Source: an uncultured Pseudomonadota bacterium (GTDB lineage Bacteria > Myxococcota_A > Polyangia > Fen-1088). From it: 64,000 bases of DNA. Position 1 is the stretch's first letter. Each line of letters begins with the position of its first letter. Of the stretch, positions 5,180 through 63,622 are shown piece after piece. A model generated the notes under the pieces. That model had not been told where the DNA came from and made no database searches. It saw only the letters and a program-made list of their open reading frames with translations. The DNA lies in the NCBI GenBank assembly GCA_963847705.1, contig CAWKBC010000027.1, forward strand, positions 879,288 through 943,287. Direction: 5' to 3'. The position numbers and the translations under genes are program-made.

Positions 5180-6576
5180 CCTGTTTCGTTGGAAGCGGGG
5201 ACCCTGAGAGGGTCCCCGTGCCCCCCCGCGAAGGACTGCGCCGCGCAAAGCCCGGCTCCGTCCACTTCGTTGGAAGCGGGGACCCTGAGAGGGTCCCCGT
5301 GGCCCCCCGCGAAGGACTGCGCCGCGCAAAGCCCGGCTCCGTCCACTTCGTTGGAAGCGGGGACCCTGAGAGGGTCCCCGTGCCCCCCCGCGAAGGACTG
5401 CGCCGCGCAAAGCCCGGCTCCGTCCACGCGATCGCTCTCACTTTCGCTCTCACTTTCGCGCTGGCCGCCGTGGCGTCTGGCTGCGCCGCGATGACGGCCC
5501 GTCCCGTGGATGGGGCAGAGGCGCCCCCGCATCCGGCCGGCGTGCTGCAGATGGTCTGGCGGACCACGCTGCACGAGCACGGCCTGTTCGAGCCGGCGCC
5601 CGAGGAGTGCGCGACCGGCGCGCTCGCCAACGGACACCTGGTGATCGGCTCGCGCGACTCGAGCGTGGTGGGGGTCGCCCCCGACACCGGCCACATCGAC
5701 TGGGTCAAAGGTGTCACGGGCGGCGTCGACAGCACGGCTCGCTTCGACCGCGCGCACGGGCAGGTCTACGTCGGCGCTGACGACGGTACGTTCTACGCCT
5801 TCGACCCCGCGTCCGGCGCCATCCGCTGGACCTATCACGGCAAGGGGGCCTTCGAGCGCCCGCCGGAGCTGGGCGCCGATCTGGTCTACGCGGCCAGCGC
5901 CACCGATCGCGTGGTCGCGCTCGATCCAGCAACCGGGAAGTGGCGCTGGCAGTACGAGCGCGAGATGCCAGAGGGGTTCACCATCCACGGCTACGCCGGG
6001 CCCCGCCTGCACGGCAACGACCTCCTGGCCGGCTTTGCCGACGGCTACTTCGTCGCGCTGGGCGCTGCCAACGGCGAGGTCCTCTGGGCGCGCTCGCTGG
6101 CCACCGCCTCCGAGCAGTTCGTCGACGTCGACACCACGCCCGCGCTCCTGGGCGATCTCGCCTACGTGTCCTCCTACTCGGGTGGCCTCTGCGCCGTCGA
6201 TCTGCACGACGGCGCCATCAAGTGGCGCCTCCCGGTGGAGGGGGTGGGCGACGTGAGCGCCGTCGACGGGCGCCTCTTCTTCGTGGCGCCCCGGCAGGGG
6301 CTACACGCCGCCGATCTCGACGGACACGTCATCTGGCGCCAGGGGCTGACCGAGGCAGGCGATCTGACCCAACCGGTGGTCGTCGGGCGCTACCTGATCT
6401 TCTCGGGCAGCCGCGCCGGCCTCTTCATCGTCGATCGAACGACGGGCACGCTCCTCGAGCTCTTCAACCCGGGCCACGGCGTCTGCGCCGCCCCGACCCT
6501 CGACGACAAGCGCCAGCGCCTCTACGTCCTCTCCAACAGCGGTTCCCTCTACGCCCTCGACCTATCCGCCTCCTGA
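5176..6576 (+). CDS. BamB-like PQQ beta-propeller lipoprotein (start either GTG 5176 or GTG 5380)
   Basis: Lipobox VASGC, repeated A.D..TG...W propeller motifs, synteny with yfgM and der. Confidence 0.85.
   Translation: MTCFVGSGDPERVPVPPREGLRRAKPGSVHFVGSGDPERVPVAPREGLRRAKPGSVHFVGSGDPERVPVPPREGLRRAKPGSVHAIALTFALTFALAAVASGCAAMTARPVDGAEAPPHPAGVLQMVWRTTLHEHGLFEPAPEECATGALANGHLVIGSRDSSVVGVAPDTGHIDWVKGVTGGVDSTARFDRAHGQVYVGADDGTFYAFDPASGAIRWTYHGKGAFERPPELGADLVYAASATDRVVALDPATGKWRWQYEREMPEGFTIHGYAGPRLHGNDLLAGFADGYFVALGAANGEVLWARSLATASEQFVDVDTTPALLGDLAYVSSYSGGLCAVDLHDGAIKWRLPVEGVGDVSAVDGRLFFVAPRQGLHAADLDGHVIWRQGLTEAGDLTQPVVVGRYLIFSGSRAGLFIVDRTTGTLLELFNPGHGVCAAPTLDDKRQRLYVLSNSGSLYALDLSAS
5185..5427. 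repeat. 3 x 81-bp tandem array of the two-hairpin element
   Basis: Units start at 5185, 5266 and 5347 and are near identical; contain GGGGACCCT-GAG-AGGGTCCCC. Confidence 0.95.
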
Positions 6577-6622
6577 GCGGCCGCCGTGGCGGAGCCGACG
6601 CTCGCCTCGCGCGCGGAGTGGG

Positions 6623-7273
6623 CTAAGCGAAGCGGGCGTGGGCGCCCTGGGCTTCGATGCGGCGCACGAGCTCTTTGATCCGCCGGTTGCCCCCGGCGTC
6701 GCGCGCTTTCCATTCGACGCCGAAGCCGTTCTGGCCGCCCGGATGTCCCTTCCAGCAGACGCGCGCGGAGAGCGGCATCGCCACCTCGGCGCCCGGCGGC
6801 GACACCATCAGGACCACGTCGAGGGCGGAGGGGAGCGCCTCTTCGGTCTTCACGAACGCTCCGCCGCGCCCGATGTCTCGCAGGACGCCGGCCTTGTCCT
6901 CCAGCACACCCGCCACCTGCCACATCACAGGGAGCTCGACAGGGAGGCGTTGGTGGCGCCGCGCGACCATCTCTTCGGAGTCGCCGCGCGCGACCCCCAG
7001 CAGGTAGTCGCGGGCCTGCGCCTCGGTCTCCAGAAATTCGATGCCGATCCCGGCCTTGATCTTGGTGCTGTGCTTCCCCGGGCGCCGCCAGACCACGCGG
7101 CCGCGAATCAGGGTGGGGCTCCGGCGCCGTCCCAGCCGGATGGCCACCGCCACCGTTTCGCCGATCGCCAGCAGCCGACGTGTCGGGAAAAAGACGCCAC
7201 CATGCTCGAGCTCGGGGAGAAACCGCGCCAGAAACGCGGCCCCGGTCGGAAAGTGCGCCTTGAGGATGGTCAT
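6623..7273 (-). CDS. Tandem PilZ-type (TIGR02266-like) domain protein
   Basis: HGGVFFPT...GRVVW...GIGIEF domain, then RRHQRLPV (RxxxR) and DIGRGG; ATG at 7273. Confidence 0.8.
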   Translation of the reverse strand: MTILKAHFPTGAAFLARFLPELEHGGVFFPTRRLLAIGETVAVAIRLGRRRSPTLIRGRVVWRRPGKHSTKIKAGIGIEFLETEAQARDYLLGVARGDSEEMVARRHQRLPVELPVMWQVAGVLEDKAGVLRDIGRGGAFVKTEEALPSALDVVLMVSPPGAEVAMPLSARVCWKGHPGGQNGFGVEWKARDAGGNRRIKELVRRIEAQGAHARFA

Positions 7274-62161: not shown

Positions 62162-63551
62162 GCTCGCCCAGGCGGTGACGTCGGCGGCGGTACCGGCGCC
62201 GCTCGCCCAGAAGCCGCCGGTCGATCCGGCGACGCTGGCGCACCGGGATCTGCTGGGCGGCGAGTTCTGGCGCGCGATCCCCGCTTACGCCGCGATCGGC
62301 GCCGCCGAGTTCCTCGACCACAAGTGGCAGGCCAAGCACTCGATCACCAACATCCCCAAGCTCCTGGCGACGCTCTCGGGGCTGGTCTCCGAGGCGTTCG
62401 TCGCCGATGCCCAGCGCGGCTTCGAGCGCGCGCCGATGTCGGTCCGTGTCTCCCCCTACCTCCTGTCGCTCATCGACTGGACGAGCCCCTACGAGGATCC
62501 ACTGCGGACGCAGTTCATCCCGCTCGGCTCGCGCCTCCTGCCCGATCATCCGCGGCTCGACCTCGACTCCTTGCACGAGCGCGCCGACATGCCGGTCCCC
62601 GGCCTCACCCACCGCTACGTCGACAAGGCGCTCTTCTTGGCGCTCGACACCTGTCCGGTCTATTGCCGCTTCTGCACGCGCAGCTACGCGGTCGGCATCG
62701 ACACCGAGGAGGTGGAGAAGTTCCAGCTCAAGGTCAACGCCGAGCGCTGGGACCAGACCTTCGCCTACATCCGCTCCCGCCCCGAACTGGAAGACATCGT
62801 CATCTCTGGTGGCGACGCCTACCAGCTGCGCCCCGAGCAGATCACCCAGATCGGCGAGACCCTGCTCAACATCGACCATGTCCGCCGGATGCGCTACGCG
62901 ACCAAGGGTCTGGCGGTGATGCCGCAGAAGATCCTGACCGACGACGCCTGGGTCGACGCGCTCACCCGCGTCGTCGAGGAGGGGCGCCGCCGCCACAAGG
63001 AGGTGGTGATCCACACCCACTTCAACCACCCGCGCGAGATCACCGAGATCACCCGGGCGGCGATGGACAGGCTGGCCGAGCGCGGCATCACCGTGCGCAA
63101 CCAGACGGTGCTGCAGCGGAAGGTGAACGACAGCGCCGCGACGATGACGCTGCTCGTGCGGCGTCTCAGCTACGTCAACGTCCACCCTTACTACGTCTAC
63201 ATGCACGATCTGGTGAAGGGGGTGGAGGATCTGCGCACCACCCTCCAGACCGGCCTGCAGATCGAAAAGGAGATCCGCGGTGCCACGGCCGGGTTCAACA
63301 CCCCCACGGTCGTGGTCGACGCGCCGGGCGGCGGCGGCAAGCGGGACGCCCACTCCTACGAGCACTACGACCGCACCACCGGCATCTCGGTCTACACGGC
63401 GCCGGCGGTCCACCCGGGGGTGGTCTACTTTTACTTCGACCCCATCGACCTCTTGCCGCCCGAAGGGCAGGCCCGCTGGGCCGATCCGGCCGAGCAGGCC
63501 AGGATGATCGAGGAGGCCCGCGCGGCCGCGCTGGCTGGAGCCAACCCATGA
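62145..63551 (+). CDS. KamA-family radical SAM aminomutase (lysine 2,3-aminomutase-like)
   Basis: LTHRY.DK, CPVYCRFCTR, ISGGD, HFNHPREI, NQTVL, DAPGGGGK (PLP lysine). Confidence 0.92.
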   Translation: MAPKIELAQAVTSAAVPAPLAQKPPVDPATLAHRDLLGGEFWRAIPAYAAIGAAEFLDHKWQAKHSITNIPKLLATLSGLVSEAFVADAQRGFERAPMSVRVSPYLLSLIDWTSPYEDPLRTQFIPLGSRLLPDHPRLDLDSLHERADMPVPGLTHRYVDKALFLALDTCPVYCRFCTRSYAVGIDTEEVEKFQLKVNAERWDQTFAYIRSRPELEDIVISGGDAYQLRPEQITQIGETLLNIDHVRRMRYATKGLAVMPQKILTDDAWVDALTRVVEEGRRRHKEVVIHTHFNHPREITEITRAAMDRLAERGITVRNQTVLQRKVNDSAATMTLLVRRLSYVNVHPYYVYMHDLVKGVEDLRTTLQTGLQIEKEIRGATAGFNTPTVVVDAPGGGGKRDAHSYEHYDRTTGISVYTAPAVHPGVVYFYFDPIDLLPPEGQARWADPAEQARMIEEARAAALAGANP

Positions 63552-63622
63552 TCGCGTCGGGGGAGGGCGACCTTTGCTCGCCTGAGCCCATCGCGAGGGG
63601 AGCGGGACCCTTCGAGGGTCCC
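63551..63622 (+). repeat. Two-hairpin element overlapping the kamA stop
   Basis: ATCGCG...GGGCGA..TTT..TCGCCT-GA-GCCC-AT-CGCG-AGGGGA-GCGGGACCCT-TCG-AGGGTCCC. Confidence 0.85.

Follow-up and report, generated by a model that had tools for sequence, protein, structure and literature searches.

A dispersed, gene-less repeat of Polyangia with a predicted hairpin and purine-motif triplex on one strand

Here we analyse a 64,000-nucleotide stretch of contig CAWKBC010000027.1 (hereafter the window) from the genome of an uncultured bacterium of the class Polyangia (G000; 6.1 Mb, 69% GC, 85% complete), and describe a dispersed repeat of about 80 bases (range 75-90) that recurs along it and carries no gene. 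With moderate confidence we regard this repeat as a likely selfish element, one strand of which is predicted to fold as single-stranded DNA (ssDNA) into a hairpin plus a short purine-motif triplex that would be read by an enzyme acting in trans. The geometry of the element is fixed from copy to copy, a G-rich leader covaries with both arms of the hairpin that follows it, orthologous sites are filled in some genomes and empty in others, and some copies lie in frame within coding genes.

Results

The repeat family in the window and in its genome

The element was modelled with a hidden Markov model (HMM) built from 68 distinct seed copies, with a match threshold of E<=0.01, and with a covariance model for which 43 diverse copies served as input. 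The HMM gave 212 matches in G000 and none in the reversed genome at E<=1, which rules out chance as their source. These matches form 154 clusters, 119 of them single copies and 35 arrays of two to four, and only one cluster is of mixed orientation. The initial annotation of the window had described a dense family of about 16 copies in 64 kb, and all 16 are present: the covariance model identified 13 full copies, each with E<=6e-7, at 5194, 5275, 5356, 13986 and 17586 on the minus strand and at 10286, 11762, 11936, 45025, 45105, 45185, 52491 and 63551 on the plus strand, together with three weaker ones (35081, minus strand, E 8e-5; 26893-26947, minus strand, E 0.0013; 22255-22345, E 0.12), and the HMM recovered 15 of the 16. 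The density applies to the window but is not typical of the genome, since the window, whose genes are ordinary housekeeping genes, is the densest region of G000, with 15 matches against a mean of 2.2 per 64 kb (about 7-fold).

As first noted, no transposase was found among the 55 window proteins scanned, and the element corresponded to no described family: the window matched nothing in Rfam but the tRNA, and no account of the element was found in the literature searched, outside which lay subscription papers as well as supplements and the ITxF database, the last two of which may include related class I motifs. Viral contigs, plasmids and phages gave no match to the element.

Anatomy of the element and covariation of its stems

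Read along one strand, the element consists, in order, of ATCGCG, a 14-nt arm, a C-NNN-G triloop (NNN being mostly TTT, TTC, TCT or TCC), the second arm, CGCG, the G-rich leader, a second hairpin (hairpin 2) whose core ACCCT-N3-AGGGT is invariant, and a short AT-rich tail. The single copy at 11762..11837 (+), immediately 5' of tRNA-Met, serves as the reference. Its hairpin 1 (11764..11806, +) combines a basal helix (CGCG/CGCG), 14-nt arms that contain internal purine-purine mismatches and a C-TTT-G triloop, and its predicted class I purine-motif triplex (11809..11833, +) would be formed by the third strand AGG (11809-11811), a 3-nt loop, the purine arm GGA (11815-11817), the ACCCT-NNN-AGGGT core (11818-11830) and the pyrimidine arm TCC (11831-11833). 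Terminal inverted repeats, a feature that miniature inverted-repeat transposable elements possess, are absent, the best 10-nt end-to-end match being 3-6 in 131 of 137 copies.

The stems covary, as initially proposed, in a test that is partly circular because both sets used had been filtered beforehand for pairing. The seven column pairs that covaried most strongly in a set of 118 distinct hairpin-1 cores were all predicted base pairs, and in the 43 diverse copies 97.1% of the stem cells were paired, compared with 86.1% after shuffling and 37-47% in slid registers, while 129 cells were changed on both sides, compared with 39 in shuffles. Of 25 pairs, 11 showed two-sided change, a number matched by 35 of 500 shuffles. 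Hairpin-templated repair or gene conversion can also preserve stem pairing, so covariation of Watson-Crick stems alone does not imply selection, and the initial annotation had moved too quickly from that covariation to a selected RNA or ssDNA fold. The mismatches of hairpin 1 are strand-specific: A-G was counted 502 times and G-G 193 times, against 45 for C-T and 100 for C-C, in 321 distinct copies.

The leader follows a triplex code

The leader, initially taken for a G-rich spacer, proved to repeat in mirror order, on the other side of the 3-nt loop, the sequence of hairpin 2's purine arm, and to covary with that hairpin. Among the same 321 copies, which come from many genomes, A or T faces 232 of 235 A-T pairs in the mirror register and G faces 896 of 918 G-C pairs, the latter count being inflated because the retrieval patterns fix G-rich positions, which leaves the two coupling tables unaffected. 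At the outermost triplet, A/A-T occurred 196 times, A/G-C 14, G/A-T 2 and G/G-C 105; at the innermost triplet of the long class, the counts were T/A-T 32, T/G-C 1, G/A-T 0 and G/G-C 175. Within strata sharing length class and loop, G.A-T was observed twice where 38.6 cases were expected, and the triplets are fully canonical in 275 of the 321 copies. In G164, copies have A and T facing two A-T pairs. A further 30 copies, only partly independent because they were chosen by the analysis's own model, had 108 of 117 triplets canonical. When we searched G000 generically for perfect hairpins bearing four triplets of this kind, 63 of the 66 sites returned lay within the element.

This layout has the class I order of ITxF, that is, reverse-Hoogsteen, purine and pyrimidine strands 5' to 3', with GGC, AAT and TAT triplets. 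Judging from these patterns, leader and hairpin 2 would together make a class I intrastrand triplex with an A(T)AT/GGC antiparallel purine-motif code. The T.A-T state fits a purine motif of the top strand and not the pyrimidine motif that would be possible for RNA on the other strand; the accessible text of Holder et al. 2015 (PMC4666352) states that RNA is unable to form triplexes of the purine motif and that the opposite strand offers no counterpart to T-A-T triads.

It is unlikely, in our judgement, that the element is a mobile repeat without a triplex, its leader covarying because a few subtypes share descent or undergo gene conversion, because of a direct-repeat slip or as a G-quadruplex. 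The 321 copies are mutually related and the triplex statistics ignore this kinship, yet both states are present in 21 of 56 strata, and in 17 strata that share an identical hairpin-1 arm; the exceptions are one-sided (A.G-C 14, G.A-T 2), and the same code holds at three positions. We rejected the direct-repeat register as a general explanation, as G would face 38 A-T pairs and the T/A position fails, and slid registers of the leader failed across the 321 copies. A three-tier G-quadruplex motif, present in 173 of the 321 copies but in only 1 of 104 short-class copies, was likewise discarded as a general explanation. Several points do weigh against the predicted triplex and lend the no-triplex explanation what strength it has. 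The triplets number only 3-4, below the 6-15 that ITxF requires of a stem, and stability without protein is doubtful for that reason; A faces a G-C pair in 19 cells among the 321 copies, and in G049 many copies do so at the outermost triplet; kinship among the copies and the retrieval of many loci with patterns fixing G-rich positions affect the sample itself.

Filled and empty sites, and copies within genes

In six relatives, orthologous sites were filled, empty, partly deleted, amplified and, once, inverted. When 125 clusters from other genomes were mapped onto G000, 93 of the sites were empty there. Soil contigs compared with the last 20 kb of the window gave mostly noise, and empty alleles at two sites. 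The cleanest junction is that of the copy at 13986..14065 (-), at the stop codon of a gene resembling that for EF-P lysyl ligase, which compared with G001 is a clean insertion of 82 nt that shows no duplication; alternatively, G001 may have lost this copy exactly, because G021 has a decayed copy there. Target duplication of fixed length found no support: this case lacks one, other junctions share TCG/ATCG, and the signal across all of them is weak. Tandem neighbours show 0-2 differences in 38 of 53 cases and nearest dispersed copies differ by a median of 9 bases, indicating that dispersal in G000 is mostly old and local amplification recent.

The element is also found within coding sequences. 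Among 21 foreign insertions inside called genes, 18 preserve the frame, two lie at the end of infB and one could not be framed; the frame-preserving ones include a pair in LeuS and single insertions in chorismate synthase, in SucD and in RNase R, as the genes were named from their sequences. In G000, 26 clusters overlap called genes by at least 60 nt, some probably through miscalled starts, and in-frame coding copies are present in RecR, which has 27 residues more than two orthologues, in RimP and in OpcA. Coding copies are read in several reading frames and from both strands. Those of rimP and opcA lie in the window, and the initial annotation had not noticed their in-frame coding position, nor the triplex pattern or the repeat nested in the copy at 35081-35197.

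Taxonomic spread

The element is confined to a few families of Polyangia. A strict pattern matched 24 of 24 other members of the genus, with 8-231 matches each; at class level it was present in 38 of the family's 46 genomes, in 2 of 2 and 2 of 4 from two other families, and in 3 of 15 from a fourth, with 1-2 copies each. The covariance model matched 15 of 17, 2 of 2 and 1 of 3 genomes in three families and none in the 27 other families sampled, and 400 other genomes of the phylum yielded four single matches only. Among the 80 named matches listed, titles referred to Polyangia, Myxococcales or unclassified (delta)proteobacterial metagenome-assembled genomes.

One possibility is that the element is retained by its host as a structural signal in DNA, such as a protein-binding or ssDNA-cleavage site, in the manner of the Neisseria NTS/SsnA system tuning recombination, its spread being secondary. 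The sequence core is nearly constant across three or four families; copies are commoner beside codon-adapted genes (from 16 in one quintile up to 77) and scarce where GC is low; neighbourhoods common to several genomes account for 50 of 219 as compared with 278 of 5159; and at 11762 the orthologous copies of G000 and G001 differ by compensatory pair changes. We nevertheless consider a host signal improbable, since counts range from 8 to 231 within one genus, the pattern is missing in 8 of 46 family members, orthologous sites are mostly empty or partly deleted, enzymes are interrupted in frame by copies, and no copies flank the small GIY-YIG gene.

Placement and orientation

Most clusters (133 of 154) are intergenic. 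In gaps between co-oriented genes, 36 are in sense and 43 in antisense orientation (p=0.5), while convergent gaps hold 40 and divergent ones 14 (odds ratio 7), and for 54 of 83 copies the end of hairpin 2 falls at -5 to +10 nt from a stop codon. A terminator U-run was found in 4 of 137 copies on one strand and in none on the other. With respect to replication, 47 clusters are on the leading strand, 45 on the lagging strand and 62 could not be assigned, by a skew estimate that is weak (genes split 217/213). Folding energies calculated for RNA and for DNA do not discriminate, and as RNA both strands fold well. A copy lies within 200 nt of 6 of 41 intergenic tRNA genes; copies flank both sides of tRNA-Met in the window (11762-12011) and of tRNA-Ser on contig C14 (L444:1183-1444). 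In G035 (L209), a copy lies between two genes whose products, judging from their N-terminal sequences, resemble the subunits DsrA and DsrB of dissimilatory sulfite reductase.

Convergent enrichment, closeness to stop codons and good folding of both strands as RNA could speak for an element that acts as RNA and is selected in transcripts, be it a terminator, a 3' stabiliser or a translation modulator, an explanation that we find very improbable because a strand-specific fold shows no preference for the transcribed strand, U-run and Rfam match are lacking, G-T wobble occupies just 101 of 4354 hairpin-1 positions, and both the T.A-T state and the in-frame coding copies speak against it. The even orientation, the lack of a U-run and the adherence of the leader to the purine-motif code thus narrow the initial choice between an RNA and an ssDNA fold towards ssDNA. 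Of the original description as a lineage-specific, REP/RPE-like mobile or regulatory element, the lineage-specific and REP/RPE-like character stood, and the regulatory part found little in its favour.

Search for a mobilising enzyme

A RAYT, IS200-605 or IS110 gene flanked by copies, as envisaged at the outset, was found at none of the genus and family loci examined. PF01797 had no match in G000, and its search in the genus and family, with 30 of the family loci examined, gave none flanked by the element. No full copy stood beside Y1/HUH genes at 30 genus loci, at 21 further family loci or at the 3 genes of G000, in assemblies that are incomplete (G000, 85%), and a RAYT-like HMM run on six frames of G000 and on the element loci detected nothing element-flanked. 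TnpB (PF07282) had no match, IS110 (PF02371) one partial match without the element, and DUF559 (PF04480) and GIY-YIG (PF01541) a single nearby copy at 1 of 30 loci each. Clustering and inspection by eye of 505 neighbouring open reading frames, 153 of which had no G000 homologue and were outside the Pfam scan, revealed no partner, and none emerged from 15 close pairs taken from four other genomes or from 8 loci of low-copy genomes.

The three Y1/HUH genes of G000 are near-identical (C2:31464-32156, also in L447; C29:169520-170230; C47:43802-44512) and fall below Pfam detection at E<=0.001. Two of them lie within an inverted repeat of about 16 nt, TCTCACGATTCGTCAC, that also encloses short tandem repeats, and they resemble the tyrosine transposases flanked by terminal inverted repeats in the accessible text of PMC3733652; relatives carry several members of this family (15 in G008). 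At the DUF559 loci (L237-L266), a class II motif of the BoxC/TM type was present at 20 of 30, in 13 of them on both strands, as against 0 of 30 GIY-YIG loci and 0 of 21 Y1 loci, and G000 has 7 BoxC motifs and no DUF559 match. That the element has a class I layout and an extra hairpin suggests that its partner would be other than the DUF559 nuclease found beside BoxC.

Individual copies and other features of the window

Two arrays of three head-to-tail copies are present. The first (5194..5432, -; period 81) separates a TPR-protein gene from a BamB-like gene and is missing from 5 alignable relatives; the second (45025..45261, +; period 80) occupies a convergent-gene gap that is empty in four relatives. 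Also in a convergent-gene gap, the single copy at 10286..10361 (+) is intact in G009 and part-deleted in five relatives. The one at 11936..12011 (+) lies between tRNA-Met and the start of a cupin gene; G021 has there an array of four plus a partial copy, and five relatives are empty. The copy 3' of secF (17586..17662, -) is of the T.A-T subtype, G017 carrying two copies and G003 one in the opposite orientation. A decayed copy (22255..22353, +) lies in frame in the 3' end of rimP, adding 40 residues compared with G017, G003 and G009, and a remnant 3' of infB (26893..26947, -) has lost hairpin 1, G021 having the full long form at the same site. The in-frame copy near the start of opcA (52491..52565, +, with opcA on the minus strand) has an empty site as its counterpart in G021, G001, G020 and one soil contig, and the single copy at 63551..63626 (+) lies between one stop codon and the start codon that follows.

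The long form in the window (35081..35197, -) separates argJ/argB from argR and contains, inside its hairpin 1, a second small hairpin repeat (35130..35163, -). Seven copies carry this 34-nt repeat in their hairpin 1, in one orientation or the other, and it also stands by itself once (G000 C7:72529-72562); nested forms resembling it occur in G021 and at other loci. In the neighbouring genes, the ArgJ and acetylglutamate kinase domains share one open reading frame of 705 residues (32970-35087), which may be a genuine fusion or a read-through and within which ARAGORN called a tRNA-Arg (33286-33382) that had no Rfam call and is probably false. A 30-nt tandem repeat (41492-41731) in the 3' part of an Agd3-like deacetylase gene codes for a low-complexity linker.

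Discussion

The element works like the repetitive extragenic palindromic (REP), BoxC and Rickettsia palindromic element (RPE) repeats, but lacks defining features of each named family. We compared it with these systems on the basis of the accessible text of the papers cited. Like BoxC/PIT/TM-ECO (Holder et al. 2015, PMC4666352), it is a dispersed G-rich repeat with no strand bias and a purine-motif code, in which a 3-nt loop separates mirror purine blocks, with unstable loci; in that text BoxC is given no link to mobile elements. Our element, however, is class I (third strand 5') with 3-4 triplets whereas BoxC is class II with 9, has an extra 14-bp imperfect hairpin, and forms head-to-tail arrays instead of inverted pairs as well as in-frame coding copies. 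The BoxC consensus, CCCTCNCCC-N3-6-GGGNGAGGG-N3-GGGNGAGGG, is of class II, so that the order in the element is opposite; the sequence differs too, and BoxC lies at separate sites.

With the REP/BIME repeats and their TnpA-REP (RAYT) enzyme (PMC8266576, PMC6006769, PMC3733652), the element shares hundreds of copies, an intergenic position after stop codons, convergent enrichment and a strand-specific imperfect hairpin with conserved mismatches. It differs in having two domains in 80 nt, direct arrays (1 of 154 clusters mixed), no flanked Y1 gene and no GTAG/GTGG foot: in line with the initial annotation, GT[AG]G was found 0-2 nt 5' of the foot in 0 of 137 copies at the 14-bp arm, and in 9 of 137 before the basal helix. 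The RPEs (PMC10969869) are likewise palindromes that lie in frame in unrelated housekeeping genes and also between genes, but they measure about 150 nt against about 80 and encode one conserved peptide where our element is read in several frames and on both strands; the triplex-type end and the free-living soil lineage also set the element apart, by description and not by sequence comparison. Finally, the CGTC repeats or NTS-SRM with SsnA (PMC11893778, PMC3733652) are oriented hairpin repeats that act as ssDNA and provide a precedent for a small nuclease; the CGTC foot is found in only 25 of 137 copies of our element, which has another stem and loop, and the GIY-YIG genes of the family are not flanked by it.

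We propose that the fold would be selected at the mobilisation step, because copies decay fast after insertion, and that the mover may be an ssDNA nuclease or an HUH-type transposase acting in trans. The analogy is with TnpA-REP, which binds one strand via stem mismatches and loops (PMC8266576), and with SsnA, a GIY-YIG ssDNA nuclease that cuts only one strand of its repeat (PMC11893778), both as described in the accessible text. The position after stop codons could result from AT-rich targets combined with the loss of harmful insertions, and arrays may have formed locally through slippage or recombination. This mobilisation scheme has its difficulties: no gene for an enzyme of the Y1, TnpB, IS110, DUF559 or GIY-YIG type searched for is flanked by copies at the loci examined, some sites counted as empty are scars left by deletion, junctions are variable, several of them sharing TCG/ATCG, left-right junction similarity is weak (22 of 1000 permutations), and the dispersed copies of G000 are mostly old. 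A further-reaching version we put forward only tentatively: the element would be the substrate of an undiscovered system for ssDNA mobilisation, one that recognises a purine-motif triple helix, and the covariation of the three strands in hundreds of copies would be a natural record of a triplex forming and being selected in bacterial cells.

Proposals of intrastrand DNA triplex motifs in bacteria go back two decades, but an in-vivo footprint test reported in the accessible text of PMC4666352 found no protection. In the element described here, three positions covary according to the reverse-Hoogsteen code, including the T.A-T state that is diagnostic of the DNA-type motif, and its natural copies supply ready swap-and-rescue variants for bench testing. 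In an abundant soil lineage, moreover, the element lengthens core enzymes, RecR and LeuS among them, by loops of 25-40 residues, as Rickettsia elements also do.

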